Positions 3,603 through 29,264 of a stretch of DNA of 64,000 bases are shown here, piece by piece. The notes below the pieces were generated by a model, which searched no databases, was not told the origin of the DNA, and was given only the letters and a program-made list of their open reading frames with translations. Source of the stretch: Patescibacteria group bacterium (GTDB lineage Bacteria; Patescibacteriota; Patescibacteriia; UBA1558; GWA2-36-10). The stretch lies in contig JBAZSG010000001.1 in NCBI GenBank assembly GCA_041662585.1, positions 2,381 through 66,380 on the forward strand. Reading direction: 5' to 3'. Numbering within the stretch: position 1 is the stretch's first letter; every line of letters begins with the position of its first letter. Both the position numbers and the translations under genes were made by a program.

Positions 3603-3639
3603 ACACTTATATTAATTTATTTTATAAATTTTAAAATAT

Positions 3640-13588: not shown

Positions 13589-14479
13589 TTAAATTGCTGG
13601 TTGTGGAGTACCCCCTCCGCCACCTCCATAAACACCACCTCCATAAACTGGCTCCGTACACCCATCTGGATCCTCAGTTGCACCACCCAAATCATCATTG
13701 TCACAATCACAAGGATCTAATCTCTTATATTCTGCTGTAGAATAAAAACTACAAGAACAATTTCTCCCAACTGGAGACCAAGGGCAATCAATACATTCAT
13801 CAAATTCAAGATTATTATTAACTACTGACCCCTTAAATACTGGCGTGCAAGTATCATCAAAATCACCAACTCCTACCAACTTACAAACATCAAATCTGCA
13901 ACTAGTCTCGTCTTTATAATCTTCGCAATTTTCAACTATTTTGTCCTCGTCTACCACACCATTTTCATCAATACCTTTACAAAATGCTTCTTCTGCCTTA
14001 CTGAGTTCAACAGCTCTTAAAGCTGCTTCGGGTAACTTAATTGTCAAGCTTTGTATTGAATCAAAATCAGAACTAATCTGCCTGAGTAACAATTGTCCAC
14101 CAAACAACAATGCTAAACCAATCAAAACACTAGTAACCATATCTTTGGATTCATTTATTTTTTGAGCGTTGCCAGCGGCCATAAGCCAGCGCCAAGCAGC
14201 AATCACCAACATAAACATAGCTACAATACCGGCAAAGCCAGCACCATAAGTATAAATAGCCACAATATAAGAAGCCAAAAAATCACCACCATGGATAGTA
14301 TTTTCTCCAGCAAAATTGTAGCCATTTATTGTAATTGGTATTGGAACATTTGGCTTATATGTTATATCAACAAAATCTGGTAATCCCAAAGCATCTCCGA
14401 CCTGTGCATTTGCTACAATAGGTAGTATCACAAATAAAGTCACTAATAACCCCAGAATGATTGATTTTTTATTCTTCAT
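13589..14479 (-). CDS. Secreted membrane protein with VirB2/TrbC-like topology (signal peptide plus two TM helices) and a long Cys/Asp-rich C-terminal tail ending in a poly-Gly tract
   Basis: Signal peptide ending PIVANA; hydrophobic hairpin ASYIVAIYTYGAGFAGIVAMFMLVIAAW ... VTSVLIGLALLFGG; tail rich in C/D/E and ending VYGGGVYGGGGGGTPQPAI. Last gene of the T4SS-like operon. Confidence 0.35.
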   Translation of the reverse strand: MKNKKSIILGLLVTLFVILPIVANAQVGDALGLPDFVDITYKPNVPIPITINGYNFAGENTIHGGDFLASYIVAIYTYGAGFAGIVAMFMLVIAAWRWLMAAGNAQKINESKDMVTSVLIGLALLFGGQLLLRQISSDFDSIQSLTIKLPEAALRAVELSKAEEAFCKGIDENGVVDEDKIVENCEDYKDETSCRFDVCKLVGVGDFDDTCTPVFKGSVVNNNLEFDECIDCPWSPVGRNCSCSFYSTAEYKRLDPCDCDNDDLGGATEDPDGCTEPVYGGGVYGGGGGGTPQPAI

Positions 14480-14488
14480 AAAATTTGT

Positions 14489-15712
14489 TTATTTTAATCT
14501 AATGCTTTGTAAATTTCCATAACCATCTGTAAAATATAACAATGATCCATCAGGAGAGGTAAAAAGATTATAAGCCGTATAGGTACCACTATCACCGACT
14601 GGACTAGCAATCAAAGTCTTGGTTCCTGAATTTAAATTTACATAATAAAAATTATCTGGATAACGCTCAGCTATCTCTGGATAAAGACCAGCACCACGAG
14701 GCAGACCTTGTGGCACCGCACAATACATAGCATCTTCCCCAGCAAAAGTACATTTATCTGGCCAAGTAGCAATATTTAATGATACTTTTATATCCCCTAG
14801 TTCACTAGTACGCCCATTGGTCACCCAAATATTTGGATTATAATTTGTACTTTCACTATACACACTATAAACCATACTATTACCTTCTGGAGACCAATCA
14901 TACTCAAAACCAGCTCCATTGACTACAAAAGATTTGAAAGATTCACCGTGTAAACCAATAGGATAAATCTCTTGTCTTTGAGCATCAGCATACTTTCTAT
15001 TGATAATTGCTACTTGATTGTCCGGAGAAAAACCAACAAAAGTATTGTGTGATTGATCGCCTAGTGGTTCTATCAAAGACATACCCGAACCATCATCATT
15101 GGAAGTTATCAACCAATTGTCTTCGTCATTTTGACCGATCCATTTGGCAGCTATCTTACTATTGGAAGTATCAAAAGAAAAATCTTCCAACTCTTGAGGT
15201 AAAGTTACCTGTCTACCTGTTTTAAAATTGTATAAAATATTTGAACCATCAGGATATTCTAAAATAGCTTTTTCAGCATTATTGGCCCAAGTAACATTTT
15301 CAACTTGATAAAATAATTTATCACTCAATTCTTCAAGCTCTCCATTTTCATTGATACGATAAAATTTTTGGCTATTGGTATCATAATATTGCAAGCCACT
15401 TTGACTAGCTGTCAGCCCCTTTATTTCATTGTTTACCAATTCATTGACTCTGGTCAGACCTCCACTAGCTACATCTGAAACTTTGTCTTGGATATAATCT
15501 TGCCAAGGCAAGGATGTGTCATTGGTATTGGTATTATCAACATCAACAATAGATACATTGCCATTACCAATCCCTGGTAAATCACCGGCATTAAAATTGG
15601 CCGGTGGTACAATCGGTGCGCTAGGTTTAAAAAATACATAGTATAAAGCATAGCCTAGTCCAAACACCAAGATAATAAAAGCTATGACTGTAAAAATCTT
15701 TTTTTTATCCAT
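14489..15712 (-). CDS. Membrane-anchored beta-propeller (TolB/PD40-like repeat) protein
   Basis: N-terminal TM anchor FTVIAFIILVFGLGYALYYVFF, then repeated ~40-aa units with W/Y-S-P-D-G patterns (YDWSPEGNSMVYSVYS, FTSPDGSLLYFTD). Confidence 0.45.
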   Translation of the reverse strand: MDKKKIFTVIAFIILVFGLGYALYYVFFKPSAPIVPPANFNAGDLPGIGNGNVSIVDVDNTNTNDTSLPWQDYIQDKVSDVASGGLTRVNELVNNEIKGLTASQSGLQYYDTNSQKFYRINENGELEELSDKLFYQVENVTWANNAEKAILEYPDGSNILYNFKTGRQVTLPQELEDFSFDTSNSKIAAKWIGQNDEDNWLITSNDDGSGMSLIEPLGDQSHNTFVGFSPDNQVAIINRKYADAQRQEIYPIGLHGESFKSFVVNGAGFEYDWSPEGNSMVYSVYSESTNYNPNIWVTNGRTSELGDIKVSLNIATWPDKCTFAGEDAMYCAVPQGLPRGAGLYPEIAERYPDNFYYVNLNSGTKTLIASPVGDSGTYTAYNLFTSPDGSLLYFTDGYGNLQSIRLK

Positions 15713-15744
15713 ATTATATAATATATAAATTCATTTTTAGCTTA

Positions 15745-16209
15745 CTAATCAAACAAACTGGTGATAGTATCCCAAGCAAGATCTAGCCCAAAACCAATTG
15801 GATCAACTAAAATGGTCAATAAAGTCAAGGCTAATAATACAATTGCTGCCAACAAAACACCCAGTATCAACCAAAGAATCAACTCATACAATTCTAGCTT
15901 TGGTATCCACTTTGATCCCATAAGATTGCCACCAATAGCCTGTACAGTCCAAATACCAAAAGTAACCAATAATCCTACACCAGTAGCTCCAGCTCCCCAA
16001 GAAGCTGCTCTAACACTTACTTTTTTGGCCACTTCTTTGACTATCTTATCTCTCCATTCTTTACTGATTTTTTCTCTGGCCTGTCGTTTTATTTGCTCCA
16101 AATCTCTAGCAACAGCTTTGTTAGACGCCCCTTGTAAACTACCAAAGTCTTGCTCTTCTGGTGTTTCCTGAAAATCATCCTGATCTAATGTTGTATCTAG
16201 TGCTGGCAT
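15745..16209 (-). CDS. Small membrane protein of the T4SS-like operon (2-3 TM)
   Basis: Hydrophobic segments GVGLLVTFGIWTVQAIGG and LILWLILGVLLAAIVLLALTLLTILV; charged N-terminus. Confidence 0.4.
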   Translation of the reverse strand: MPALDTTLDQDDFQETPEEQDFGSLQGASNKAVARDLEQIKRQAREKISKEWRDKIVKEVAKKVSVRAASWGAGATGVGLLVTFGIWTVQAIGGNLMGSKWIPKLELYELILWLILGVLLAAIVLLALTLLTILVDPIGFGLDLAWDTITSLFD

Positions 16210-16218
16210 AAAATAAAA

Positions 16219-16773
16219 TTATTTCCAAATTACTTGGTCAACCAACCATTTATCATCTACTTTTAATAAATCTACTTGCGTTTCTTGATAATAAACATTT
16301 TCTTCCAGTTTGGCATTGGTTTCTATTTTTTGGGTATTTACTAATATCTGAGCACTAGTATCATCTATCACTATAATCTGGGCGCTAATACTCTTGGTCG
16401 TCACACCTCTAAATTCTTCAGCACCAAAATTGAGTTTTATATTTTTTAAATAATTTTGCATTTTAACAGTGCTAAGAGACAAGAGCTCACTTAGATTTGC
16501 TCCTTGATTGTCAGTAGACCAAGATCCAAATCTAGCGACATAAGACTTGGCCAAATTGATAGCGGAAAACTCCGTAGGATCCTCTCCAACTACTTTAGTT
16601 GGATCATATTGTAATACTGTGCTAGGTGGTGTAAAAACTGGTGGTGGTGTATTGGTATTTTCATTGACAATTGGAGACTGATCTGAAGTTCTAAGCACCC
16701 AAAGTAAAAAAGCCAAAAGCAGTATAACAATGACTATGGCCAATAATATTTTTTTCCTTTTGTCTTCTTCCAT
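16219..16773 (-). CDS. Bitopic membrane protein, VirB8-like candidate (N-terminal TM plus ~150-aa extracytoplasmic domain)
   Basis: MEEDKRKKILLAIVIVILLLAFLLWVL anchor followed by an alternating beta-rich domain, directly downstream of VirB4. The assignment rests on position and topology only. Confidence 0.3.
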   Translation of the reverse strand: MEEDKRKKILLAIVIVILLLAFLLWVLRTSDQSPIVNENTNTPPPVFTPPSTVLQYDPTKVVGEDPTEFSAINLAKSYVARFGSWSTDNQGANLSELLSLSTVKMQNYLKNIKLNFGAEEFRGVTTKSISAQIIVIDDTSAQILVNTQKIETNAKLEENVYYQETQVDLLKVDDKWLVDQVIWK

Positions 16774-16809
16774 ATTTTTGATTTATTAAATATTGAATTA
16801 AATATTTGT

Positions 16810-18720
16810 CTATGCTTTTTCTGCTTCGGCCATCATTTGTTCTTCAAATTCTTTTTTGGCTTCTTCTATCTCAATCAATTGTCTTGGATCAGAAGTAATG
16901 ATTTGATGTTCTGCATAAGATGCTTGAATCTTTATAGCTGCGTGTTTGGCTCCAGCAAAAAATATCCCCTCTCCCAAACCTGCTTCAAGTAAAAGATATT
17001 TTTCTCCTTCAGTCAACATAAATGTTTTTTGTACTAGATTGACTGCTGCTGGTGTTTGTTTTAAAAGTAATTGTAGAGCACAATTGGTCACAATAGCATT
17101 GCCATAAGTAGAGGTCAAAAAGTCATTGACATCTTGAGTAATGGTAGTAATACCCAAATAATATTTACGACAACGCTTGACCAAGGCATACATAAACTTG
17201 GCACTATCTTCATGTCGCATCATAATCCAAGCTTCATCAACTACTAGCATTCTACGTTTGAGCTCACTTCTGATAATATTCCAGATATAGTTCATGATCA
17301 TATACATAGCAATTGGACGGAGCTCATCTTCTACATCTCTAATACAAAATACTACCAATTGATTATCTACTTTTATATTAGTCGGACTATTAAACAAACC
17401 CGCAAAAGTACCTTCGGTATATTTTTTGATACGTAAAGCCATGTCTTCACCACCCTCCATACTGAGCAATACCTCTTCCAAATCTGACATAACAGGAGCT
17501 TCAATATTGGACAAGTCACTAGCCGCTGTAATATCTTTTTTGGCATAAGTTTCAAGTATTGCCCTATCCAACAAAGAATCTTCTGAATTGGTAATATCGC
17601 CAATCATCAAACGAATCAAACCCTTGAGAGTAATGATAGCACTACGAAGTATATCTTCTGGCTTACTCTCTCCTCCTACTCCTCTTGGCAAATCAAAAGG
17701 ATTGAGCTTGCTCTCAGAATTGAGAGATACATTGATATAAGCTCCACCAACAGATTCAGATAAATGTTGATATTCATTTTCTGGATCAATAATGATAACA
17801 TCTGCTCCCAACATCATAGAACGAAGTATCTCCAACTTGATAGCATAAGACTTACCAGCACCAGAAGTAGCAAAAACTACCATATTGGCATTTTGCAAAG
17901 AAAATCTATCAAACAATATCAAACTATTGTTGTGTCTATTGATGCCATACAAAATACCCTCATCAGAAGTCAGCTCTGATGATACAAAAGGAAATGATGA
18001 AGCAATTGGTGAAGAGTTCATGTTGGTAGAAATGGTGAGTTCGTCATTGCCCAAGGGAAGTGTAGAATTGAATCCTTGTTCAGATTGAAATAATGCCCGA
18101 CGAGAATAGATGAGTTGCATACCCAATAAATTTTCTATCCTATCCGTAGCCAAATCAAGTTCATCTTTGTCTTTGGCATAGATAGTTACATAAAGTGCAA
18201 ATTGAAAAAACTTTTCCGTGCCCTGACTGAGACCATCACGAAGAGCTTCTATATCTTGTAAAGCTGTTTCGGTAATTGGATCACGGGGAGCGCCTTTTTC
18301 ATGATCAGCTATAATCTGAGCCTGCATAGTACCTACTTTATTTTTCAATTGTTTCAGTACTATTTGAATATCCAATGGATAAAAAAACATCGAAATATCC
18401 AAAGTCAAACTTTCATTGATGATAGGAGCAAACCAACCAATGGTAACATAACGAGGATAAGTCATCACAAATAAAGTACGTACAAAAAGATTGTTTAATT
18501 GCAAAAATTTTGGATCTACTTTTAAGGAAGCTGGCGCTATAATATCTCTGACCGAAACAATGCCTTCTCGAAAGACCTTTTCAGCTTCAATCAATTGTTT
18601 ATCTCTGGATATTTGCTCTTCTGGAGATACTTTGGCTCTATCACTAGCCGACAATCTTTCTAGATCTTTATCTACCTTAGTTTCTTTTTGAGCTTGTTTT
18701 ATTTTATTAAAACCAAACAT
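16810..18720 (-). CDS. VirB4/TrbE/CagE-family T4SS ATPase, C-terminal (ATPase) part
   Basis: Walker A VVFATSGAGKSY, Walker B MLVVDEAWIMM, ITQD motif; length and order consistent with the VirB4 NTPase domain. Confidence 0.8.
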   Translation of the reverse strand: MFGFNKIKQAQKETKVDKDLERLSASDRAKVSPEEQISRDKQLIEAEKVFREGIVSVRDIIAPASLKVDPKFLQLNNLFVRTLFVMTYPRYVTIGWFAPIINESLTLDISMFFYPLDIQIVLKQLKNKVGTMQAQIIADHEKGAPRDPITETALQDIEALRDGLSQGTEKFFQFALYVTIYAKDKDELDLATDRIENLLGMQLIYSRRALFQSEQGFNSTLPLGNDELTISTNMNSSPIASSFPFVSSELTSDEGILYGINRHNNSLILFDRFSLQNANMVVFATSGAGKSYAIKLEILRSMMLGADVIIIDPENEYQHLSESVGGAYINVSLNSESKLNPFDLPRGVGGESKPEDILRSAIITLKGLIRLMIGDITNSEDSLLDRAILETYAKKDITAASDLSNIEAPVMSDLEEVLLSMEGGEDMALRIKKYTEGTFAGLFNSPTNIKVDNQLVVFCIRDVEDELRPIAMYMIMNYIWNIIRSELKRRMLVVDEAWIMMRHEDSAKFMYALVKRCRKYYLGITTITQDVNDFLTSTYGNAIVTNCALQLLLKQTPAAVNLVQKTFMLTEGEKYLLLEAGLGEGIFFAGAKHAAIKIQASYAEHQIITSDPRQLIEIEEAKKEFEEQMMAEAEKA

Positions 18721-19400
18721 TATGTTTCGATGGTTAATTTATTTATATTTTCCATTGGTTGTCTTTGAAACAAATCTGGATTATAACTATTATAATACAA
18801 TTCAATCAGAGCCTGTGTACTCAAACGTTGACTCCTGAGTCCTAAACTACCAAGTCCTGAGGCAATAAAATTGCATCTTTTTTCCAATTGAGCACTAAAT
18901 TCTTCAAAACGCTTACGTCCCAAAGTAACTACCTTGGCTGAAGAAAATACGGAAGCAAATCTACTCTTAAAGCCCTTTCGTTTGTCAGTGAGCGAACTAT
19001 AAGGAACTATGACATAAAATTTCTTGCTCATTATCTTTTCTAATGTAAGTAGCTCATTTACAAAGCCTCTATAATCAGCTGTTTGAATACGTAACAATTC
19101 ATTGGTCTGCTCTCGCTCCACTTTTTTTAATCTATCCATATAATCATCAATATTTAGTGGTCTAGAATGTATAACTACTTGTAATGGATAATCTAGGGTA
19201 TTTAAAAAATTTACATAATTGCCAATTATAGCCCGTTGTTCATCTTCTGATTTTAAATCAAAGTTTACAGAAGATACCAATAGTACTCCTCTCACTGTTC
19301 CATCATTTAAAACTACTAGATCATCCCTGATCTCAGCAATATCCAAATATTTTTGTGTCGAAGTCAATACTTTTTTTCCAGCCAATTTTTTATTTTTCAT
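18720..19400 (-). CDS. VirB4-family N-terminal domain encoded as a separate ORF (split VirB4)
   Basis: YLDIAEIRDDLVVLNDGTVRGVLLVSSVNFDLKSEDEQ resembles the conserved start of VirB4/TrbE proteins. The stop overlaps the ATG of the ATPase ORF (TAATG). Confidence 0.55.
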   Translation of the reverse strand: MKNKKLAGKKVLTSTQKYLDIAEIRDDLVVLNDGTVRGVLLVSSVNFDLKSEDEQRAIIGNYVNFLNTLDYPLQVVIHSRPLNIDDYMDRLKKVEREQTNELLRIQTADYRGFVNELLTLEKIMSKKFYVIVPYSSLTDKRKGFKSRFASVFSSAKVVTLGRKRFEEFSAQLEKRCNFIASGLGSLGLRSQRLSTQALIELYYNSYNPDLFQRQPMENINKLTIET

Positions 19401-19416
19401 ACTACTTTATAATATA

Positions 19417-19893
19417 TTAAATATTATCCTCTGAAAAACTAACATTGTTTTCCCTATTTACTTGTTTTTCTCCTTTATACATACCACCAGTATCAATGAT
19501 CAAAGAAAGCTCTGATAACTTTCTACTGGAACTGAGTCTTTTGGGAACAAAAATTTCTTCTTTTGTTTCTTTGTCTTCTTTTGATTTGTATTCTTCTACT
19601 TTTATATGTTCTTTGCGCCAAATACGAAGGGCTGGTTTTTTGAAAGTTGTTTCAATAAAATTAAGAGCAAAGGTATGAAAAGGAGCTCCGTTTACTTTAT
19701 AAAAAGCAAATATACTCACTAAAATCACAATAATTACTGCCCAAAAAATAAATAATGAAAAATCTGAAAGTTTATAGGCAATAAAACCAAAAAGTAAACC
19801 AGCTAAAATAATGATAAACTGACGGACTGTAATCGGTCCCCAAATCCTATCTTCTATGTCTATAAATTGTGGTACTATAAATCTTTCTGGCAT
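19417..19893 (-). CDS. PrgI/VirB3-like small membrane protein (two TM helices)
   Basis: RQFIIILAGLLFGFIAY and LFIFWAVIIVILVSIFAFY hairpin near the N-terminus, lying immediately upstream of VirB4 as is typical for VirB3 analogs. Confidence 0.45.
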   Translation of the reverse strand: MPERFIVPQFIDIEDRIWGPITVRQFIIILAGLLFGFIAYKLSDFSLFIFWAVIIVILVSIFAFYKVNGAPFHTFALNFIETTFKKPALRIWRKEHIKVEEYKSKEDKETKEEIFVPKRLSSSRKLSELSLIIDTGGMYKGEKQVNRENNVSFSEDNI

Positions 19894-19896
19894 AAA

Positions 19897-21300
19897 TTAA
19901 AATCTTAATTGCTTGTTCAAGTCAGATATAGCCGAAAATTCTTCTATAGTAAAAGTAGCTTTGTTATTTCTTTCACTTTCTTGTATAAATTCAGCAACTT
20001 CTTTACCAGCTATCATACTATCAGCGCCCAATTGTAAATACAGCTTATAAGCTTGACTACTTCTCCAAGCAGCAATGCCTTGGGCTTTTTTGGTATATGA
20101 CTCTTGTTCCAATAAATTAATTTTATCAAAAATCTTTTGAATTCTTTCTTTGGGTGTATTGCCCAAACGACGAAACCCAACCAAATCAAAAGATTTTAAT
20201 TCTTGTATTGGGCCAGTCAAAGCATCTTTTAAAGCAAAAGACTCATCTGCTTGCTTTTGTATTTCTTTTTTTGGTATTACTACATCACTAATCGGCTTTT
20301 TAAAACTTTGAGCGACTGTTGCTCTAGATACTTTTGGTAAAAATGTTTCTGTATTTTTTTGATTATCTGTGTCTTCAATTTTAGCTGCCGCTTCTTTTAT
20401 AGCCGCTTGCTTTTTCATCAAAGTTTCTGCAGATAACTCATGGATTGAGGCTTTTTTGATGGGTATTTCTTGATGGATATCTTCAGAAATAGCTGGAATA
20501 GAAAATCCTTCAGCTGGCTTGGATGTTTTTCCTAAACTTGATTTTAAATTGGCAGTATTTTTGATAGCCGCTTGCAAAACTGGATCAGTCTTTGTTTCCA
20601 AAATAGGTAATTCTCCTAAGGCTGCTTTTATCTCATCTTGAGCTGACAGTTGTTGGCTAGCTGAAGACTCCAACATAACCGCTGTTTTTTCTGATTTTGG
20701 TTTTTCAATTTTTAGTTCTTTCAAATCAGCTTGATTGACCACTAGTCCTCCGGCTAAATCAATTTTATTTTTAATACCTTTGATGATAGATAAAATATTA
20801 TCAATTACATTGGCTGATAATTTTTTATTATTTGATAAAACACTATTTACCAAAAGCTCCCGAATAATCACTGCACTTTTTCTGCTTCTAAAAAAATTAT
20901 ATAAAATATTAGAAAAAATCTTTTTATTTTTTTCATCAAATACTAAATTTTGTTTTTCAATAATACGATCAACTATCTTTTCTACACTATATTTTTTGCT
21001 ATCGTCTTGTGGTATATTTTTGGCAAAAAAATCAAGTTCTTCTTTGTCTTCAGGATGAAAAACAAGTTCTGCTTTATCTTGAGAGCCAGCATTAATATTT
21101 GGTATAGATAAAAAACTATCGTCCTTTGGTGCTAAATTTCCTTCAGAAACATGATTAATTTGAGAACCAATATCAACAGAATCAGTCTTTTTATTGGAAT
21201 TTAAATGCCCAAAATTGCCTTTTTCATCTTTAATCAAAAGAGCATCAGACCAATTATTAGTACTCAAAACATTTGCTACTTTATTATTTGAAAAATCCAT
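19897..21300 (-). CDS. Hypothetical Lys-rich soluble protein, first gene of the T4SS-like operon
   Basis: 467-aa ORF with no TM segment or signal peptide and a coiled-coil-like composition. It is 3 nt upstream of the VirB3-like gene. Confidence 0.4.
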   Translation of the reverse strand: MDFSNNKVANVLSTNNWSDALLIKDEKGNFGHLNSNKKTDSVDIGSQINHVSEGNLAPKDDSFLSIPNINAGSQDKAELVFHPEDKEELDFFAKNIPQDDSKKYSVEKIVDRIIEKQNLVFDEKNKKIFSNILYNFFRSRKSAVIIRELLVNSVLSNNKKLSANVIDNILSIIKGIKNKIDLAGGLVVNQADLKELKIEKPKSEKTAVMLESSASQQLSAQDEIKAALGELPILETKTDPVLQAAIKNTANLKSSLGKTSKPAEGFSIPAISEDIHQEIPIKKASIHELSAETLMKKQAAIKEAAAKIEDTDNQKNTETFLPKVSRATVAQSFKKPISDVVIPKKEIQKQADESFALKDALTGPIQELKSFDLVGFRRLGNTPKERIQKIFDKINLLEQESYTKKAQGIAAWRSSQAYKLYLQLGADSMIAGKEVAEFIQESERNNKATFTIEEFSAISDLNKQLRF

Positions 21301-21335
21301 GAATTATTATGTGTATATTTATTTTATTTGACTAT

Positions 21336-21365
21336 ATTATAACATATTTATCTCTTTATAGCCAA
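21336..21365 (-). promoter_or_regulatory. Candidate sigma70-type promoter for the T4SS-like operon
   Basis: On the minus strand: TTGGCT, 17-nt spacer, TTATAAT, about 30 nt upstream of the 19897-21300 start codon. Confidence 0.35.
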
Positions 21366-21382: not shown

Positions 21383-21451
21383 AAAATACCCTCTCTTTTT
21401 TCTCCTCCTAATTTAGGGGGAGATGTCCGTAAAGGACAGAGGGGGTATTTT
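21383..21451 (-). terminator. Structured element or terminator downstream of efp
   Basis: AAAATACCCTCTC ... GAGGGGGTATTTT long-range inverted repeat with an inner CTCCTCC/GGGGGAG hairpin, flanked by T-runs on the minus strand. Confidence 0.4.
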
Positions 21452-21461: not shown

Positions 21462-22019
21462 TTAAGCTCTTTCTACATATTCACCAGTCTCAGTATTGAT
21501 AATAATTTTTTCTCCTGATTTTATAAATAAAGGAGTCCTTATTTCTAAATCATTTTCCAATATTACTGTTTTGGTAATTGATCCAGCACTATTGCCCTTT
21601 ACTCCCTCGGGGGCTGATTTGACTTCTAGAGTAATTTTGGTCGGCAAAGCAATGGACACTGGATTATTGTTGAAAACCAAAACATCCACTTCTTGACCAT
21701 CTATAAGATATTTTACCAAATCGCCCAAACTATCTTCAGAAAATTGAAACTGCTCAAAACTTTCATTATCCATAAAATGAAAATCATTGTCTTGCTTATA
21801 AAGAAAATTGGCTTTGCGACGAGTAATATCTGCTTCAGCTATACTATCTGCACCGGAAAATGTCTTTTCCAAAGTATTGCCAGAGATCAAATTTTTGAGC
21901 TTGGTTTTCATCACTGCTCCACCTCTAGCAACTTTGATATGTTGGTTCCAAACTACTTGATAAGGCTCATCATTGACAGAGATTACTCTGCCTAATTTTA
22001 AATCATTTAATCCTAACAT
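21462..22019 (-). CDS. efp: Elongation factor P
   Basis: MLGLNDLKLGRVISVNDEPYQVVWNQHIKVARGGAVMKTKLKNL... The track ORF (to 22139) extends 40 codons upstream over rpsR, so the internal ATG at 22017-22019 is the likely start. The residue equivalent to E. coli K34 is Arg (ARGG). Confidence 0.88.
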   Translation of the reverse strand: MLGLNDLKLGRVISVNDEPYQVVWNQHIKVARGGAVMKTKLKNLISGNTLEKTFSGADSIAEADITRRKANFLYKQDNDFHFMDNESFEQFQFSEDSLGDLVKYLIDGQEVDVLVFNNNPVSIALPTKITLEVKSAPEGVKGNSAGSITKTVILENDLEIRTPLFIKSGEKIIINTETGEYVERA

Positions 22020-22023
22020 AATA

Positions 22024-22242
22024 TTATTTTGATGCGTAAGGAAGTAAGGCCATAAAACGAGCTCGTTTGATAGCTTGAGCCAATATTCTTTGGTGTTTTG
22101 AACAAACGCCACTTCTTCTCTTTGGCACAATCTTACCATAAGAGGATGTAAAACGTTTTAATTGTTGCCAATTTTTATAATCAATATCTGAGATATTATT
22201 TACACAAAAATGACAATATTTACTAGTTTGTTTTGTATGCAT
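22024..22242 (-). CDS. rpsR: 30S ribosomal protein S18
   Basis: CHFCVNNISDIDYKNWQQLKRFTSSYGKIVPKRRSGVCSKHQRILAQAIKRARFMALLPY. Confidence 0.9.
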   Translation of the reverse strand: MHTKQTSKYCHFCVNNISDIDYKNWQQLKRFTSSYGKIVPKRRSGVCSKHQRILAQAIKRARFMALLPYASK

Positions 22243-22261
22243 ATTAAATTTAAATTAATCT

Positions 22262-22729
22262 TTAAAATGGTATATCCTCAATACTAATTTCTTCTTCGCT
22301 GTCACTTACATTGTTTGAAGAACTTTGATTTATATCCACTGTTGGTGTTTTGTCCATTGATGGCTGTGCTGTACTAAAATCTCCACCACTTGGAGCATTG
22401 CCTGCTCGATCAAGCATAATCATATTTTCAACAATGATTTCTGTACGATACTTTTTGACGCCATTTGGATCATCCCATGATCTAGTTTGAAGTCTACCTT
22501 CAATATATACTTTAGCTCCCTTTTTGAGATATTGATTGGCTATTTCAGCCAATCTGCGCCAAGCTACTATATTGTGAAATTCTACTTTTTCTTGTTTTTG
22601 ACCATTGTTATCATTCCATACTCTATTGGTGGCTATTGAAAAAGAAGTAACATTTTGACCACTAGGAGTAGTGCGCATTTCTGGATCACGCACCATATTG
22701 CCAATTAGCATTACTTTGTTTAGATTCAT
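22262..22729 (-). CDS. ssb: Single-stranded DNA-binding protein
   Basis: OB-fold N-terminus MNLNKVMLIGNMVRDPEMRTTPSGQNVTSFSIATNR, acidic C-terminal tail ending DIPF. Confidence 0.9.
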   Translation of the reverse strand: MNLNKVMLIGNMVRDPEMRTTPSGQNVTSFSIATNRVWNDNNGQKQEKVEFHNIVAWRRLAEIANQYLKKGAKVYIEGRLQTRSWDDPNGVKKYRTEIIVENMIMLDRAGNAPSGGDFSTAQPSMDKTPTVDINQSSSNNVSDSEEEISIEDIPF

Positions 22730-22747
22730 ATAATTGTATTAATAAAA

Positions 22748-23275
22748 TTAATCAAGTTTTGGTTCTTCTAAAATTGCATCTAATTTCTTATCAATATCTT
22801 CCAATTTTATTGTTCCCTTATCTTTATTTTTATCAATATCCTTACTTGGTTCTCGTCTGACATCTGCAGCTTTTTTGAAAAAAGGCTTGGCAGATGTTGT
22901 TTTTGTTTTGCGAGATGTCTTGGCATTATCTTTGTTCATATCTCTTTCTACCATTTTAGAAAAATCAACATCCACACTCTTGGAACGATTTTCTAATCTA
23001 ATAACTAAATAACGAAGCAAAGAATTATTGTGCTTCAATTTGGTATCCACTTCTTTTAGAGATTTGCTGTCTTCTGTTTCAAATTCTAGAGAAACATAAA
23101 AACCTTGTTTTTGTTTGGCTATTGGATAAGCCAATTTTCTACGACCCATAAAATATGGCTCGCGAGTAATCTTGGCCTCAATGCCCTTTAAGTAGCCCAA
23201 AACTTGCTGATTAACAGCTAGATGCTCTGTTTCGGCAATAGCTGGACTAATAATAAAAGATAGTTCGTATTTCAT
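22748..23275 (-). CDS. rpsF: 30S ribosomal protein S6 with a long charged C-terminal extension
   Basis: MKYELSFIISP...GFYVSLEFETEDSKSLKEVDTKLKHNNSLLRYLVIRLE; canonical S6-SSB-S18 gene order. Confidence 0.9.
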   Translation of the reverse strand: MKYELSFIISPAIAETEHLAVNQQVLGYLKGIEAKITREPYFMGRRKLAYPIAKQKQGFYVSLEFETEDSKSLKEVDTKLKHNNSLLRYLVIRLENRSKSVDVDFSKMVERDMNKDNAKTSRKTKTTSAKPFFKKAADVRREPSKDIDKNKDKGTIKLEDIDKKLDAILEEPKLD

Positions 23276-23439
23276 TTTTCTATCTAATTACCTTGATCTT
23301 ACAATCAAGGGCCCCCGATGGTTAATACTGGGGCACGGTTAATTAAGATATATTAACTGCACGCAATTTACCATAATCATGAGCATAAGTCAATACTTAT
23401 TATATTGCACAAAAACACTATTTACACTATCATATAGCT

Positions 23440-24609
23440 ATGAATAAATATTTATTTATGCTTGGTCAGTCTCCTGACTTGGCTCAAGAAGAATTAAAAG
23501 CTATTTTAAGCTCCAAAAACGACCAAATAGAGCTGTATAACTCTGATTTTGTACTGGCCAATACTGACCAAGCAGCTAGTGACTTGATCAATGTTTTGGG
23601 TGGTACTATCAAAATTGCTCGTTATCTTCAAGCTATTGATAATCTCCATGATTTGAACGCTGATCTTTGGTATAGTTTTTTAGCCAAAAACCTTAACCCA
23701 AACCTTAAAAATTGCTTTGGTTTTAGCTTGTATAATGATACTAATGCCAATTATAATACAATACTAAAAATAGCTTTTAAATTAAAAAGAACATTAAAAA
23801 ACAATAATTATAAATGTCGCTTAGTCACTGGCCAAGACCCTGTACTCTCCTCGGTCATAGTAGCAAAAAATAAATTGATCGGCAGTGAACTATTGATTAT
23901 AAAATACCAAGAAAAATATATTTTGGCTCTGACAGAGGCTGTGCAAGATTTTGTGGCCTATGGTTTTAGAGATATGAAGCGTCCTCATCGTGATGACCGG
24001 AGTGGCATGTTGGCTCCCAAAGTAGCTCAAATGATGGTCAACTTGGCTGGAAATGATAAAAACAAAAACATTTTGGATCCTTTTTGTGGCTCTGGTACAA
24101 TACTACAAGAAGCTATGCTCTTGGGTTACAAAAAAATATATGGTTCTGATATTAGTCCCAAAGCCGTCAAAGAAACAAGTGAAAATCTTGACTGGCTTAG
24201 TAAAAATTTTCATCTAAAAGCTAATATCAAAATATTGGAATCAAGTATAGAAAATTTAGCCAATAATTTTGCTAAAAATTCTATAGACCTGATAGTCACT
24301 GAGCCATTTATGGGTGATGCACGCATCATCATTCGTCAAAATAATAGTCAGGATATAATCAAAATAAAAGACGAACTGCAAATGCTATATAAATCTGCTT
24401 TTACCAAATTCAAAAAAATAATATCTTCTGACAGTCTCATAATATTTATATTTCCTATTTTTCATATTTCCAATCAAGACATCTATACTCTAGATAAACA
24501 AATTATTTCCCAACTTGGCTTTAAATATCAACTAGACAAAGATATAATCTATAGTCGCGCCAATCAAAAAGTAGCCAGACAAATCACTGTCTGGAAACTA
24601 AAAAAATAA
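23440..24609 (+). CDS. THUMP-domain RNA methyltransferase (UPF0020/Trm14/RlmL-like, SAM-dependent)
   Basis: SAM motif I ILDPFCGSGTILQEA and motif IV-like DLIVTEPFMG, with an N-terminal THUMP-like region. Confidence 0.7.
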   Translation: MNKYLFMLGQSPDLAQEELKAILSSKNDQIELYNSDFVLANTDQAASDLINVLGGTIKIARYLQAIDNLHDLNADLWYSFLAKNLNPNLKNCFGFSLYNDTNANYNTILKIAFKLKRTLKNNNYKCRLVTGQDPVLSSVIVAKNKLIGSELLIIKYQEKYILALTEAVQDFVAYGFRDMKRPHRDDRSGMLAPKVAQMMVNLAGNDKNKNILDPFCGSGTILQEAMLLGYKKIYGSDISPKAVKETSENLDWLSKNFHLKANIKILESSIENLANNFAKNSIDLIVTEPFMGDARIIIRQNNSQDIIKIKDELQMLYKSAFTKFKKIISSDSLIIFIFPIFHISNQDIYTLDKQIISQLGFKYQLDKDIIYSRANQKVARQITVWKLKK

Positions 24610-24610: not shown

Positions 24611-25867
24611 TTATATTTTATCTACCCAAGCAAATTTATTGGCTAATACTTGTATAGTACACCATTTAAATTTTTGATCTTGCTTATCCAAATACATCAC
24701 TTGCCCAGAATCTGCTCCTGTATTGGTCAGATAATAAATAGCGGCGTATAATTCATCAGCCGAAAATTTTAATTTTTCTACCAAAAGCATCTCCAAAAAA
24801 AGACGCAAAACTATAAGTTTTTCTATATTTTCATCCAAAGATCTCTCCATACTCTGACCAAACTTTATACCAATAAATCTCTTGAGTATGCTTTTATACC
24901 TAGAATCTTCTTTGATCATAAAATCAAAGGATTTTTTTTCTAGCAAAATTTTGAGACAAGAAATTGCCTTATATTTGTCTTCTACGCCAATAGCTTGCCA
25001 GAGTATATCCCTGACTTTATTTATATCATTATTAGCTTCAGAAAGTATCATATCACTAGAAGGCAAATTTTCTTGAAATAGATCTAAAGTATTTTTAAAA
25101 TTTGTCAAAACTTTTTCAAAAGACAACTCATAGTCATCATTATCTTCTTCTCTGGATTTTTTTTCTACTTGCTCTTTGACTATCAAAAGCCCATCTGATC
25201 TATCAAAATAAAGCTCTATATCTTCATCATAAGATAACAATAAAAAACGTAAACTATCCTTATATTTATCCTCTAGTTGTAAAGCATTTTTATTTTTGGC
25301 AATATATCTTGTCCTCTCCAAAGAGCTATGTTGGCCGGCACCCAAAAAATGTACATAATCCTTAATCCAATTTTGTACACTAGGGTTTGTTATCCTTCCT
25401 CTTTCATCTAATATCTTATTGGGTGTTAAACGAAAATCTTTGAATTCTTCATATTTTTTTAAGAGTTCTTTTACTTTTCCTTGAAAAATTTCTGGTAAAA
25501 CATCAGGTTCTACCACTTGTTTTTTCTTTAAAAAAACTGGCCTGGGCACTTTGCCTCCCAAACGCAAAATTAATCTATCCACTCCTCCGATATATTCTTG
25601 GAGTGGCCAAAATATTTCCATTGCCATTTGCAGAGCCAATTCTCTAAGATCTCCTTTAAATTCTCCCGGTATTTTTTCCAAATCTTTGGGCAGATCAAGG
25701 ATATTTCTTTTTTTGAGAATAATATCATCTTCCAATTTATTTACAAAATCAAATTGCTCAAAATTAAAAGAAAATTTATCATCTATAGCATAATTGACAT
25801 CTGCTACCTCAGTCCAAATAAAATCTTGTACTTCCTCTGGTAAAATATTTAAATCATTTATATTCAT
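24611..25867 (-). CDS. Hypothetical soluble protein, last gene of the giant-protein operon
   Basis: 418-aa ORF lying 10 nt downstream of the VirB6-like gene. No recognisable motif. Confidence 0.45.
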   Translation of the reverse strand: MNINDLNILPEEVQDFIWTEVADVNYAIDDKFSFNFEQFDFVNKLEDDIILKKRNILDLPKDLEKIPGEFKGDLRELALQMAMEIFWPLQEYIGGVDRLILRLGGKVPRPVFLKKKQVVEPDVLPEIFQGKVKELLKKYEEFKDFRLTPNKILDERGRITNPSVQNWIKDYVHFLGAGQHSSLERTRYIAKNKNALQLEDKYKDSLRFLLLSYDEDIELYFDRSDGLLIVKEQVEKKSREEDNDDYELSFEKVLTNFKNTLDLFQENLPSSDMILSEANNDINKVRDILWQAIGVEDKYKAISCLKILLEKKSFDFMIKEDSRYKSILKRFIGIKFGQSMERSLDENIEKLIVLRLFLEMLLVEKLKFSADELYAAIYYLTNTGADSGQVMYLDKQDQKFKWCTIQVLANKFAWVDKI

Positions 25868-25877: not shown

Positions 25878-28800
25878 TTATTTAATCTTACTTAGGCTAC
25901 CTTTATCTACTGCGGCTGCTTTTTTCTTTGCTTCCCTTATAGTTATACCAGGTATTTCTTGCATAAACTTTTGTACATGCATCTGTACATACAATTCATT
26001 TCTGATGGTATCTGCCAAATTATCTGTAACGACTTTACCTAGTTTACCTCCTCCACCCACGATAGATTGAGCTAGAAGTTTTATTTGGTCTGAATTACCA
26101 GCTTGAAGAATTTGTCTTTGTTGATCAACTGTAGCTACTTTAGCCAATTCTTCAAACAAATGACGAGTATTTGGATGCTTAATATCCATTTCTTCTAGCC
26201 TTGAATAATCTGATCCATCTGTACCATTTTTTAATATAGCCCTAGAATAAAGATTCTTATTATTAGGATTGGTTAATCCAAGCTCTCTTCTCTTCAAAGT
26301 ATTTTGTAAACGTATTAAACTATTTTGCTCTGATAATAATTTTGAAACAAGCTTTTTATCAGGGTCTGGTTTAGCTTTTTCTGTAGCTATATCTTGCTTC
26401 AATTCTTCTATTCTAAGATTATTTTTATTATTTGGATCATTCAAGTCTTTTAATTTACTAGTAATAGCTTTTCGTAAAGCTTCAGCTTCTTTATCATAAT
26501 TTGCCTGATCAAAAACAAATCTATCGTTTTCTTTCTTCTGATCTCTCTTATGGTCTTTTTCTGCCTGTTTTTCCATTCTTTCTCTAATCTCGTTTCTGAC
26601 TCTTTCTTCTGCCTTTTCTCTTGACTCTGGTGGAGTGCCATCAAAACCAGCTTGTGTCTTTGGAGACCAAGCTTTCATCGCTTCTTCAACCTTTTCATCT
26701 AATTCATCTTCATCTATTTCTTGTCTTTGTACTGTTTTTGCCCGCTCTGGTCTTGGCCCTAAATTGGCCAAAATAGCAGCTTCCATATCAGCTATTATAT
26801 CTTCTTCCATGACCTTAAATACAGGTGATTCACGCAAACCTAATTTGGATTTTTCTACATAAGCCAATTCTTCTTCTAACCCTTTTCTTTCCTCTTTACT
26901 TAAACCAGTATTAGTTAATTTTACTTTTAATTCTGTTGCCTGTTCTTCTAATTTAACTTCCTCTTCTTTTATTTCATCATTGGTATAATGCCCCATGAGA
27001 TTTCTTCTGGTCTTATACAATTTGTCAGTCGCTTCTTTACCTTTGTCACTGTTTTGCCATTCTTCGTTATTTTTGTCCCATGCTTCTTTTGTTTTGGCTT
27101 TTCTTATTTCAAAATCTTTTTCAGACTCAAAAGAATTTTTAGCAAGATGATTTATTGAATCATTATCAAAATTGACTTCTCCACTATTAAATCCTTGTTC
27201 TAAGGCCCCTACTATAGCTTCGTGCAAAGCTTCGGCTTGTTCTGGATAAACTTGAAGAAGAGCTTCAAATAATTTTATAGCTTCATTTTGATCATTTGTA
27301 GAAAGAACTCCTTTGTTGTTATGTTTAGTCTCTTGACGCTTGGTTTCTAAATTTACTTCAGTAGCCAACATACCAAGATCTTTTTTGTCTTTAGCGGTTC
27401 CTCTGATACCATCTTTATCTTTTTTACCATATTTAATATCTGCTCCCTTCTCTGTATCATTATTTATATCTACCAAAACCTCCTCTCCTTCTTGACGAAA
27501 TGCTTCTGATTCAGCTTGCCTTGTCTTTTTAAATTGATTTAATACATCCCTACCAATACCTCCACCTTCATAATTTGGATCTTCCAAAAGAGCCCTGATA
27601 ATATTACGCATACCTGCTGTTGTTTTACCATCTTCGTCTAAAACACCATCAGCTTCCTTATCAAGCAATTTTCTAGAGCCAACATCATTTAGATCTTTTT
27701 TAACAGCCGCTAAATCTGTATTGGTATTTGCATATCGAGCATGTAAGGCATCAATCCTAGGTTGATCATTTATTCTCTCTAAAGCTTCAATATCCTCAGC
27801 TGCTTGTTTTGCATCGTGTTGTTCTTTTCTATCGGTTCTTATGATGGCTGCTTTTGTTTTTGCTTCATCATGTCCACCTCCCCAAGAAGTAATAAGCTGT
27901 GTCGCCCTCGCTACTTTAGAACTCTCTCCAATAGCCTTAGGTAAAAATTTACCAATTAACGGAATATCTTTTAATTTATCAGGTGTAGATGATTGAGTTC
28001 TATAAAATTCTTCTTTTTGTTTAGGATTAATATATTTGGTATCTTCCGCGTGTTCAGCAAGAATCCTAGCTGTGTTTCTACCTTGCATTTCCATAGCTCC
28101 TCTTTGCAGTTTACCTCCATAAAAAGGTACTTTGGTAGCAACTCCTGTAAATTTACCCAAAAGTGTATCCTTCTTTGGTTTTCCTTTATCATCTACCATA
28201 CGCTCAGCAATAGCAGTGCCGGCTCTCATAGCCAAAGCTTTTGGATAACGTCTAGCAATATGTCCAGCTGTGCTCTGAATTTTGGCCATACCCTTGGCTG
28301 CCACACTAGCTCCAGCCGCACCAGAAGCAGCTGCCATCTTAATACCCATCATAAGTAAGGCAATAGCAATGATATAATTCATCATATTACTGCTATCCAA
28401 AAATTCAGTTGCTCCTTGTGCCCCTCCTCCGGTCATAAAAGTACTATAGGCATTTCCATTGCCAACAATACTAAAAGTAAGCCACAAGAAAAAAGCCAAC
28501 ATCGGACCAGTTACCAGATTGGTACCTAGCTGTTTTGTCCAAGTATTATAAAAACTATTGGTAGCTGGAAAAATACTAGCCATAAAAGCCAAAGGAGCCA
28601 TAATAATAGCTATCCACAAAGCTACAATTCTCATCATCAACATCATAACCATTACGCCCACAATTACCACAAGTATTGCTACTAGAGCTGCTCCTAAAAC
28701 CATAGATACTACATAATCCCCAAAACCAGTAACAGGAGCATCGGGATTAATAGTGGTAAATTTATGCAAACCAATGGCGACCACCACTCCTCCTGACATT

Positions 28801-29264
28801 ATTTCATTGATAGCTGAAATAAAAGTAAGCATTATTACTTGTACCACATCAATAAAAAATCCCACAATGGTCTTGGAAAAATTTATCAAAATAGCCACAA
28901 GTATTGTACGTTTTAAAAGTTGTTGGTAACCATAACTGGAAATTCTCAGTATAGTCGCAAAAGAAATAACCAATAATATTAAAATAAAAAACATATTGGA
29001 CAAATCACGAAGTGCTATCCAACCCAATGTCACGCCTGCTTCATGAGTAAAACCATTGTAACTAGCCACAAGTTTCAAAAGTTCCAATTCCAATTCAAGA
29101 ATCCAAACAAAAGGTTGCATAAAAAATGTCCAGATTACACCACCTACTAGCTGTATAACAGCCTCTACAAGTGCCAAAGATTTCATGGGAGCCAAAGAAA
29201 ACAAACTCAAGGCAAGTACAAAATATTGCCATCTGATAGCTAGTTTATGTTTTTTAAACTTCAT
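25878..29264 (-). CDS. VirB6/TrbL-like polytopic membrane protein with ~700-aa charged coiled-coil C-terminal extension
   Basis: Residues 1-340 contain 7-9 hydrophobic helices with Gly/Ala-rich loops, as in TrbL/VirB6. The remainder is K/E/D-rich with heptad-like character and no Cys. Confidence 0.45.
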   Translation of the reverse strand: MKFKKHKLAIRWQYFVLALSLFSLAPMKSLALVEAVIQLVGGVIWTFFMQPFVWILELELELLKLVASYNGFTHEAGVTLGWIALRDLSNMFFILILLVISFATILRISSYGYQQLLKRTILVAILINFSKTIVGFFIDVVQVIMLTFISAINEIMSGGVVVAIGLHKFTTINPDAPVTGFGDYVVSMVLGAALVAILVVIVGVMVMMLMMRIVALWIAIIMAPLAFMASIFPATNSFYNTWTKQLGTNLVTGPMLAFFLWLTFSIVGNGNAYSTFMTGGGAQGATEFLDSSNMMNYIIAIALLMMGIKMAAASGAAGASVAAKGMAKIQSTAGHIARRYPKALAMRAGTAIAERMVDDKGKPKKDTLLGKFTGVATKVPFYGGKLQRGAMEMQGRNTARILAEHAEDTKYINPKQKEEFYRTQSSTPDKLKDIPLIGKFLPKAIGESSKVARATQLITSWGGGHDEAKTKAAIIRTDRKEQHDAKQAAEDIEALERINDQPRIDALHARYANTNTDLAAVKKDLNDVGSRKLLDKEADGVLDEDGKTTAGMRNIIRALLEDPNYEGGGIGRDVLNQFKKTRQAESEAFRQEGEEVLVDINNDTEKGADIKYGKKDKDGIRGTAKDKKDLGMLATEVNLETKRQETKHNNKGVLSTNDQNEAIKLFEALLQVYPEQAEALHEAIVGALEQGFNSGEVNFDNDSINHLAKNSFESEKDFEIRKAKTKEAWDKNNEEWQNSDKGKEATDKLYKTRRNLMGHYTNDEIKEEEVKLEEQATELKVKLTNTGLSKEERKGLEEELAYVEKSKLGLRESPVFKVMEEDIIADMEAAILANLGPRPERAKTVQRQEIDEDELDEKVEEAMKAWSPKTQAGFDGTPPESREKAEERVRNEIRERMEKQAEKDHKRDQKKENDRFVFDQANYDKEAEALRKAITSKLKDLNDPNNKNNLRIEELKQDIATEKAKPDPDKKLVSKLLSEQNSLIRLQNTLKRRELGLTNPNNKNLYSRAILKNGTDGSDYSRLEEMDIKHPNTRHLFEELAKVATVDQQRQILQAGNSDQIKLLAQSIVGGGGKLGKVVTDNLADTIRNELYVQMHVQKFMQEIPGITIREAKKKAAAVDKGSLSKIK

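Follow-up and report, generated by a model that had tools for sequence, protein, structure and literature searches.

The stretch analyzed here, referred to as the window, comprises 64,000 nucleotides from a Patescibacteria group bacterium (GenBank assembly GCA_041662585.1, contig JBAZSG010000001.1, positions 2,381 to 66,380), and the genes in question are located on its minus strand between positions 13589 and 21300, where they appear to encode the parts of a type IV secretion system (T4SS). The cluster consists of eight open reading frames (ORFs), designated g1 to g8, which are tightly packed with spacers of -1 to 36 nt and have a GC content of 0.32-0.36, the same as the flanks. An earlier note on this DNA had described co-directional, tightly spaced minus-strand genes; coordinates and layout hold, except that nine genes had been counted instead of eight. 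A ninth gene was rejected because the gaps leave no space for it, the largest internal one measuring 36 nt. The cluster and its control signals are as follows (TM, transmembrane).

19897..21300, minus strand: g1, soluble Lys-rich protein of 467 aa with 12% Lys and no TM helix; first gene of the conserved core
19417..19893, minus strand: g2, PrgI/VirB3-like protein of 158 aa with two TM helices (17-35, 45-63)
18720..19400, minus strand: g3, TrsD-like protein of 226 aa, putative N-terminal domain of VirB4 on a separate gene; 1-nt overlap between its stop and the g4 start
16810..18720, minus strand: g4, VirB4 ATPase (C-terminal two thirds), 636 aa, Walker A GAGKS, Walker B DEAW
16219..16773, minus strand: g5, bitopic VirB8-like protein of 184 aa with an N-terminal TM helix, a Pro-rich linker and an NTF2-like domain
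15745..16209, minus strand: g6, small membrane protein of 154 aa with a charged N-terminal part of ~70 aa followed by 2-3 hydrophobic helices
14489..15712, minus strand: g7, predicted beta-propeller (PD40/TolB-type repeats) of 407 aa with an N-terminal TM helix (6-24)
13589..14479, minus strand: g8, protein of 296 aa with a VirB2/T4SS_pilin core and a Cys/Asp-rich tail; signal peptide, hydrophobic helices 82-100 and 114-132
21336..21365, minus strand: candidate sigma-70-type promoter of the g1-g8 operon, TTGGCT, 18 nt, extended -10 TGTTATAAT
21383..21451, minus strand: hairpin and U-run after efp, RNA fold of -30.3 kcal/mol, z = -3.59

The sole intergenic gap of more than 40 nt (161 nt) is located upstream of g1. 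Right after the efp hairpin it contains a sequence that can be read as TTGGCT-18 nt-(TG)TATAAT (21365-21336), the best-scoring site of the region (10/12, with TG). Because the total number of promoter-like sites showed no excess over chance (35 vs 34.9 in shuffles), the call of this candidate, which agrees with the single promoter proposed earlier, is based on position and quality. The hairpin and U-run behind efp, for which none of 200 shuffled sequences folded equally well, are likely an intrinsic terminator that shields the operon from upstream transcription. A further terminator-like hairpin of the minus strand (13482-13465) lies within the 3' end of the convergent recG gene.

For the identification of components all ORFs of at least 110 aa across the 64 kb were scanned with Pfam and NCBIfam. 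The protein encoded by g4, which contains both Walker motifs read from it before, matched NF045971 conju_CD1110 with an E-value of 3.9e-103 and 346 bits (cutoff 325) over profile positions 145-729 of 752. The ranking within NCBIfam was CD1110 (346 bits), Mbov_0397 (284), F-type TraC (193), VirB4_CagE (125) and TrbE (30), and this order favors an affinity of g4 to the MPF_FATA prototypes. Against PDB sequences the best match was the VirB4 C-terminal domain 4ag5 (2.1e-48), with R388 TrwK next at 1e-7. The identification as VirB4 in the earlier note was therefore correct, but the view of a single gene was not, because the TrsD-like N-terminal part encoded by g3 had not been listed. The g3 protein matched VirB4_plasma at positions 92-239 (2.4e-10), TrsD/TraD NF041427 (4e-8) and CD1110 at positions 16-119, so that VirB4 is probably encoded here by two genes, a TrsD-like one for the N-terminal part and one for the ATPase. 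The protein encoded by g2, one gene away from virB4, scored 43.1 bits (6.5e-11) with PF12666 PrgI, above the cutoff of 27, in agreement with its earlier description as a PrgI/VirB3-like protein with two TM helices.

One alternative reads the ATPase as a FtsK/HerA protein or a type IV coupling protein (T4CP) of the TraG/VirD4 type, or the whole cluster as a Tad or type IV pilus. It draws on the name of the top Pfam match of g4, 'P-loop_TraG', and on additional matches of the central domain to DUF87/HerA. We take PF19044 'P-loop_TraG' to represent the TraG protein of Bacteroides conjugative transposons, a homologue of VirB4 rather than a T4CP, with TIGR03783 as its NCBIfam counterpart. Matches over the full length were obtained with VirB4 equivalogs (346 bits) and with solved VirB4 structures, whereas VirD4-type models reached E-values of 0.004-0.13 only. 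A PilB/TadA-type ATPase, PilC/TadBC or class III prepilins were not found within 13589-21300; PilB, PilC and prepilins are encoded apart from it, in a cluster at 53.7-58.6 kb, and PilB is the sole T2SSE-family ATPase of the window. With the VirB4 and PrgI profiles matching above their cutoffs in the searches that the earlier note had suggested, the FtsK/HerA/TraG scenario was not upheld, and we give this alternative virtually no weight.

VirB4 relatives were searched in one genome per species, which resulted in 587 hits. For the analysis of synteny 80 loci from species-level genomes were fetched and compared, together with the window, by tblastn and iterated profiles (81 loci in total; single fetched loci are given as L numbers). 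VirB4 was present in 81/81 loci, the TrsD-like protein was encoded by an ORF of its own in 80, and g2 and g1 were present in 78 and 75, respectively. The order g1-PrgI-TrsD-VirB4-g5 was always kept. Since this string recurs across the 80 related genomes, the cluster is not a product of chance, and the comparison with related genomes proposed in the earlier note also revealed a module larger than the one described there.

The closest VirB4 relative (91% identity) is encoded by Ca. Komeilibacteria RIFOXYD1_FULL_37_29; other named relatives with 65-91% identity belong to Falkowbacteria, Magasanikbacteria, Parcubacteria and the 'Patescibacteria group'. Judged by these similarities the window derives from a Komeilibacteria-like Patescibacterium. 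Komeilibacteria, Falkowbacteria and Magasanikbacteria presumably belong to the GTDB class ABY1. Many records containing the locus are titled Gammaproteobacteria, Planctomycetota, Candidatus Methylomirabilis or Saccharimonadales (L003, L005-L007 and others), and these are probably mislabeled metagenome-assembled genomes.

The fifth gene, g5, was present in 80/81 loci. An AF2 model of g5, whose domain behind the linker comprises roughly 115 aa, was calculated with 29 homologues and reached a pLDDT of 84.3, and the top PDB structures in a Foldseek search were TcpC 3ub1 (4e-5), PrgL 7aed, TrwG 4nhf, CagV 6iqt and OrfG 7pkw. Rickettsia VirB8 and R388 VirB8/TrwG were also found, the VirB8-like matches ranging from 4e-5 to 5e-4. 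Hub domains of CaMKII and other proteins with the NTF2 fold match the model too. Because this fold is common, the assignment additionally needs the position behind virB4 and the similarity of the family profile to PrgL over the whole domain (E 0.09). On this basis, g5 is modeled as a VirB8-like protein, as the earlier note had guessed from its bitopic topology, and it may represent a structure-supported VirB8 homologue in essentially all 80 loci; a published survey, which is introduced below (PMC12102498), reports few VirB8 matches by sequence. A shared domain of g5 and g7 was considered and discarded: the iterated g7 profile had drawn in g5, a clean full-length g7 profile revealed this as drift, and the overlap corresponds to the TM anchor and the low-complexity linker (positions 1-125, E 1e-6 to 0.05).

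The first gene, g1, encodes the soluble Lys-rich protein seen in the earlier note. Its AF2 model shows two helical domains (~80-198 and 361-467, pLDDT about 96) separated by a disordered linker of ~160 aa. The family is large, with 2,062 clusters at 50% identity at E <= 1e-3 and 1,498 at E <= 1e-10, and its conserved portion is the C-terminal ~110 aa, always located at the C-terminus. No match of g1 to Pfam or NCBIfam was obtained, and a search of PDB sequences with the family profile returned noise. As a cytoplasmic, Lys-rich protein encoded by the first core gene, g1 is, speculatively, a candidate adaptor for the ATPase. Both g1 and g5 are 100% identical to Patescibacteria proteins at NCBI (WCS88_01440 and WCS88_01460, respectively). 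The small membrane protein g6 has no family match in Pfam or NCBIfam and is lineage-restricted, occurring in 7/81 loci, all of close relatives. A role of g6 as VirB6 equivalent was ruled out by this narrow distribution; a TrbL_3-related protein is conserved upstream instead.

The conserved partners upstream are separated from g1 by a block of housekeeping genes and extend the locus considerably.

21462..24609: housekeeping block with efp, rpsR, ssb and rpsF on the minus strand and a methyltransferase gene on the plus strand (Pfam)
24611..25867, minus strand: g418, soluble charged protein of 418 aa, whose gene is flanked in relatives by the VirB6-like gene and g1
25878..29264, minus strand: g1128, candidate extended VirB6/TrbL of 1,128 aa with ~8 TM helices within its N-terminal 320 aa and a charged tail of ~800 aa
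29300..38065, minus strand: g2921, giant secreted Cys-rich protein of 2,921 aa with 111 Cys, an N-terminal signal anchor and one CBM_4_9 domain
38082..38903, minus strand: g273, membrane-anchored protein with TSP3 repeats of the calcium-binding type (PF18884 TSP3_bac, 2.2e-5), between ksgA and g2921

Homologues of g1128 carry precomputed matches to PF19590 TrbL_3 and weak matches to PF04610 TrbL (9.8e-5 and 8.7e-4), and such a homologue was located two genes upstream of g1 in 45/51 loci with enough upstream sequence. Assigned via these homologues, g1128 is the probable extended VirB6 of the system, an architecture that has been described before (PMC12857230). The g418 protein, which matched no Pfam or NCBIfam family, was found in 36/51 evaluable loci. 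A paralogy of g1 and g418 was rejected; 5 ORFs match both profiles, yet hhalign gave a probability of 0.2.

The giant gene g2921 is located directly upstream of the VirB6-like gene. A collinear homologue encoding a protein of 2,560 aa precedes TrbL_3 in L083/L084 (tblastn 6e-96), and matches to the C-terminal part of g2921 occur upstream of the g1128 homologue in L003, L005, L063, L073 and L078. A collinear homologue of g273, annotated as TSP3_bac, is present in L084 (1e-15). In L083/L084, whose VirB4 is 66% identical to that of the window, the order is ksgA, TSP3 protein, 2,560-aa protein, 200-aa protein, TrbL_3, 336-aa protein, g1 homologue, PrgI, TraC-like/TrsD, VirB4, 221-aa protein, DsbA and RadA, with a precomputed PF26593 TraC-like match for the g3 homologue. 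The window genes ksgA, g273, g2921, g1128 and g1-g4 are homologous to and collinear with this locus.

In the window, L001, L003 and L005, g418 and g1 are separated by the block of rpsF-ssb-rpsR-efp and the methyltransferase gene, and L019 has a rearranged copy at this place. In L002 the same block genes were found upstream of g1 and the available sequence does not reach as far as g418. In the remaining evaluable loci g418 and g1 are adjacent. This distribution indicates that the block was inserted in the lineage of the window and split the T4SS locus. Thus, the conserved locus appears to extend from about 13.6 to 38.9 kb of the window with an interruption at 21.5-24.6 kb. The earlier note had spoken of a minimized apparatus. 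This part did not stand: 5-17 kb upstream, outside the region that it had covered, a VirB6/TrbL-like gene and other conserved partners are encoded, and the apparatus is less minimal than it appears.

On the other side, the operon converges with genes that are conserved neighbors in relatives.

9401-10099, plus strand: comF
10826-11377, plus strand: gene for a 2-TM protein
11442-13571, plus strand: recG, convergent with g8

The identification of comF relies on TIGR00201 (2.8e-28) and that of recG on detected RecG domains. Within the 80 loci recG was found nearby in 38 and comF in 40, and in 31/69 evaluable loci comF follows the VirB8-like gene directly on the same strand. In the lineage of the window g6-g7-g8 occupy the position at which comF follows the VirB8-like gene elsewhere.

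The Pfam/NCBIfam scans detected no VirD4/T4CP, relaxase, VirB11 or secretin among the window ORFs of at least 110 aa, as had been reported before, and no integrase either. The families of VirB4, PrgI and TrsD, which are those of Gram-positive conjugative plasmids and integrative and conjugative elements (ICEs), and tRNA genes 3 kb away could point to an ICE remnant, a conjugative element that is decayed or cryptic after the loss of relaxase and coupling protein. The comparison of loci speaks against such decay. The string of VirB6-like gene, g418, g1, PrgI, TrsD, VirB4 and VirB8-like gene is located beside ksgA, recG and comF in 80 species-level genomes, with the same order, intact ORFs and VirB4 proteins of 65-91% identity, and the window shows neither an integrase nor a compositional break. 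Because of the conserved string at a housekeeping site, the flank-like GC content and the missing integrase, inheritance of the locus is predicted to be vertical and chromosomal. The literature likewise describes a monophyletic, near-universal Patescibacteria clade (PMC12102498). The ICE remnant is therefore largely refuted, and we regard it as very improbable.

Systems of this type have been published. In the Saccharibacterium Southlakia epibionticum a T4SS is essential for epibiotic growth (Wang 2023, PMC10633639); it resembles Gram-positive conjugative systems, yet has essential pilins and no recognizable coupling protein or relaxase, and the authors propose protein export or an alternative role. 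According to a survey of 3,035 Patescibacteria genomes (Quinonero-Coronel 2025, PMC12102498), VirB4 is present in 2,417 of them and forms a monophyletic clade nested in MPF_FATA, with genes for TrsD, PrgI/VirB3, VirB6 and VirB2-like proteins near virB4. Relaxases are almost absent there, and VirD4 homologues are mostly encoded far from virB4. For the class ABY1 the same survey reports matches of the VirB8 type and comF, recG and radA as neighbors, and ksgA is a common neighbor of virB4 in most classes. Taken together, the locus very probably represents this already published chromosomal, relaxase-less, pilin-bearing and MPF_FATA-derived T4SS of the Patescibacteria, also known as candidate phyla radiation (CPR). 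Component matches and published systems thus agree with the proposal of the earlier note of a Gram-positive/CPR-style T4SS-like apparatus without relaxase or coupling protein nearby.

The last two genes of the operon, g7 and g8, encode the parts which the earlier note had considered as nonstandard. The g7 protein of the window matched PD40 with 4.4e-4. In the g7 family 10/18 members match PD40 (best 4.4e-7) and others match further beta-propeller families; a phmmer search of PDB sequences with g7 gave nothing useful. As proposed earlier, g7 is predicted to be a membrane-anchored beta-propeller, and because the N-terminal TM helix anchors it, the propeller would be located outside the cytoplasm. 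Genes of the g7 type were always found together with g8-type genes. Both were located within 10 kb of virB4 in 15 loci, the pairs occur at variable positions, and two g8 paralogues often flank g7.

The g8 protein combines a pilin core with a tail of ~160 aa that contains all 12 Cys residues (167-274), has a Gly-rich end and shows no family match. With the window protein PF18895 gave 0.0042 and 17.6 bits (cutoff 26.6) and the pilin-like family Mbov_0395 gave 0.0023. In the aligned family 29/30 members match PF18895 T4SS_pilin (best 2.7e-12) and 6 match TrbC/VirB2, which is in line with the VirB2/TrbC topology and the Cys/Asp-rich tail described before. As VirB2-like pilins are a known hallmark of the Patescibacteria T4SS, the view that g7 and g8 are not standard T4SS parts failed for the pilin. 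A term search of the survey (PMC12102498) found no mention of a beta-propeller. Its section on the T4SS gene repertoire is silent on tails of pilins and on proteins of the g1 type (PMC12102498). The role of g5 as VirB8, the modular tails of g8 and the g1 family may extend what has been published, and the supplement of the survey may list some of these points.

The cleaved signal peptide and the two-helix hairpin place both termini of g8, and thus the tail, outside the cell. In F-type pili the pilin termini are likewise located at the outer surface. An extracellular tail fits the Cys content and the DsbA gene in L083. In g8-type proteins of relatives the tails contain an SLT (74.6 and 73.8 bits), 3D (32.5 bits), VanY (up to 28 bits) or M23 domain. 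These proteins often have a Cys-rich insert ahead of the core, and paralogues of a single locus differ in their tails. Proteins with a PF18895 core and a hydrolase-like tail (SLT/VanY/3D/M23-like) were found in related ABY1 loci at the following positions.

L053, 16269-17627
L041, 18582-19658
L003, 14322-15539
L064, 8637-9917
L049, 20621-21517
L029, 18617-19909
L033, 17552-19123

By their domain composition these proteins would amount to a VirB2-like core carrying VirB1-type enzymes, and the tails could serve as machine-tethered VirB1-type assembly enzymes or as host-directed tools. Such tails are also an argument for an outward-directed function of the same apparatus, in which a T4SS delivering effectors or hydrolases breaches the host envelope and pilin cores present wall-degrading or wall-binding tails at the site of contact. 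The SLT, VanY, 3D and M23 domains that follow the pilin core in relatives, the Cys-rich and topologically extracellular tail of g8 in the window, and the giant Cys-rich surface protein and the TSP3 protein as conserved neighbors are in line with this reading, which also matches the suggestion of protein export by Wang 2023 (PMC10633639) and is comparable to T4SSs that kill bacteria or translocate effectors. Neither a T4CP nor a recognizable signal-bearing effector is located near the locus, however, the hydrolase tails possess Sec signal peptides and could act as VirB1-type enzymes on the own cell wall, and the g8 protein of the window has no enzymatic domain. We regard this outward-directed function as possible rather than probable.

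A broader proposal, which we put forward tentatively, joins these observations. The 'pilin' of ABY1 may be a modular carrier whose conserved two-helix core presents an exchangeable tail on the outside of the cell at the T4SS, and in combination with the beta-propeller it may form a module for breaching or recognition of the host wall that merges the functions of VirB1 and VirB2. The g1 family, with roughly 2,000 clusters and no structural relative detected, may act as the substrate receptor in place of the coupling protein that is missing.

For the assignment to the published Patescibacteria T4SS we propose the following mechanism. By analogy to pCF10, R388 and related systems, TrsD and VirB4 would form a membrane-associated ATPase docked by PrgI/VirB3 that powers assembly and transport. 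As in related machines, g5 as the VirB8-like and g1128 as the extended VirB6/TrbL-like component would build a membrane translocon spanning the wall. The g8 protein would insert with its two helices as a hairpin, leaving both ends outside the cell, and might either polymerize into a pilus-like tube or remain anchored in the membrane displaying its disulfide-rich tail. The anchored beta-propeller g7 would work together with g8 in the envelope.

As no relaxase or coupling protein accompanies the system, we infer that the locus is not a conjugation machine. Most likely it provides a conduit that depends on contact and connects the epibiont with its host cell. Within this explanation we give the import of nucleic acid or other macromolecules from the host, as in ComB or Ced, somewhat less than an even chance; second, at roughly a third, is the export of proteins by which the host envelope is breached or manipulated. 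The preference for import is based on the operonic link to comF, the neighborhood of recG, ssb and radA, the analogy to ComB and Ced, and a 2026 preprint describing host-RNA feeding and tubular structures that are possibly T4SS pili. It also draws on RadA and DsbA, which follow the VirB8-like gene in L083/L084, and on a weak similarity of VirB4 to CedB (1.6e-13).

Several points weigh against this assignment and its functional interpretation. The g1128 protein itself has no Pfam or NCBIfam match and its N-terminal family profile returned noise against PDB, and g3 and g8 taken individually score under the curated cutoffs. The lack of a T4CP applies to the 64-kb window alone, and VirD4 homologues are encoded elsewhere in most Patescibacteria genomes (PMC12102498). 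The direction of transport and the cargo are inferred only. The linkage of comF and recG could be mere conserved gene order, and the membership in ABY1 is based on the GTDB classification and the agreement in synteny instead of a tree. Southlakia can do without comEC but not without the T4SS (PMC10633639, PMC12857230), so that the essential role of the T4SS in this organism is not ComEC-dependent DNA uptake.

The T4SS of Patescibacteria is one of a small number of machines on which the epibiotic lifestyle of a very large and mostly uncultivated radiation has been shown to depend. The window adds no new kind of system, but a clean and complete example from an uncultivated ABY1-type lineage with a sharper list of parts. 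The proteins g5, g1128, g1, g2921, the tailed g8 and g7 are concrete candidates for host contact and substrate selection, and the recurrent operonic link to comF gives a testable hint toward the import of nucleic acid.

Outside the T4SS locus, the window contains the type IV pilus cluster mentioned above.

53723-58985: type IV pilus cluster with PilB (56918-58570), PilC (55709-56914) and several prepilin-like genes, flanked by a response regulator (58623-58985)

Besides the T4SS, type IV pili are the envelope machinery known to be indispensable for epibiotic life. Beside the cluster (50049-53701) a histidine kinase of 1,053 aa with Cache, HAMP and PAS domains and a stand-alone PAS protein are encoded. 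A protein with the architecture LysM-LysM-Peptidase_M23 is encoded on the plus strand at 44414-45547, ~23 kb from virB4; M23/LysM architectures are listed among the VirB1-like candidates of Patescibacteria in the survey (PMC12102498). Three membrane-anchored proteins of 775, 498 and 499 aa (1275-5136 and 45621-47120) had no Pfam match and are probably surface proteins; the one of 499 aa shows a weak similarity to thrombospondin type 3 (CglD/MtsD-like). At 59736-59812 ARAGORN identified a tRNA-Ile with the anticodon TAT (UAU). In most bacteria AUA codons are read instead by a lysidine-modified CAU tRNA. In the housekeeping block the longest efp ORF (21462-22139, 225 aa) has an N-terminal extension of ~40 aa that overlaps rpsR. 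Because the EF-P domains begin at residue 45, the true start is probably an internal Met near 22019.

Among known systems, the archaeal Ced system (CedA/CedB) shares with the window a VirB4-family ATPase without a relaxase, and it imports DNA together with pili. The similarity of the window VirB4 to CedB is weak (1.6e-13, 50 bits vs a cutoff of 700). Unlike in Ced, no CedA-like proteins were identified in the window, and the affinity is to bacterial MPF_FATA. The ComB system of Helicobacter pylori is similar in possessing parts of the VirB2, VirB3, VirB4 and VirB8 types, and a VirB6 for which the window has a candidate, and no VirD4, VirB11 or relaxase. ComB cooperates with ComEC and ComF for the entry into the cytoplasm, and the operonic linkage of comF in many relatives of the window is reminiscent of this. 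In contrast to the window, ComB belongs to a diderm and includes VirB7, VirB9 and VirB10. In Saccharibacteria the requirement for the T4SS does not involve ComEC (PMC12857230).

The Gram-positive conjugative MPF_FATA systems share with the window the best VirB4 model (CD1110), PrgI, the TrsD-type split and an NTF2-like VirB8 homologue (TcpC, PrgL). Unlike these systems, the window has no relaxase, T4CP, origin-of-transfer context or PrgB-type adhesin. It does have a pilin, whereas they have no VirB2-like one, and the locus occupies a fixed chromosomal site and is not a mobile element.

From the Patescibacteria-clade T4SS, represented by Southlakia (SEML1_0006-0019) and the survey of 3,035 genomes, the window differs in one pilin-core gene instead of an array of six, in the Cys-rich tail of 160 aa on this core, in the PD40 beta-propeller and the small membrane protein g6, in the splitting of the locus by rpsF-ssb-rpsR-efp, and in lacking a lysozyme or peptidase gene directly downstream of virB4. 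It shares with this clade the chromosomal location, VirB4 with a separate TrsD, PrgI/VirB3, genes for a candidate VirB6-like protein and a VirB2-like pilin in a monoderm, and the absence of a relaxase or T4CP beside virB4. With its members from ABY1 it further shares the VirB8-like match and the neighbors comF and recG. The window thus fits the published description point by point and is therefore best regarded as a further example of this known system.

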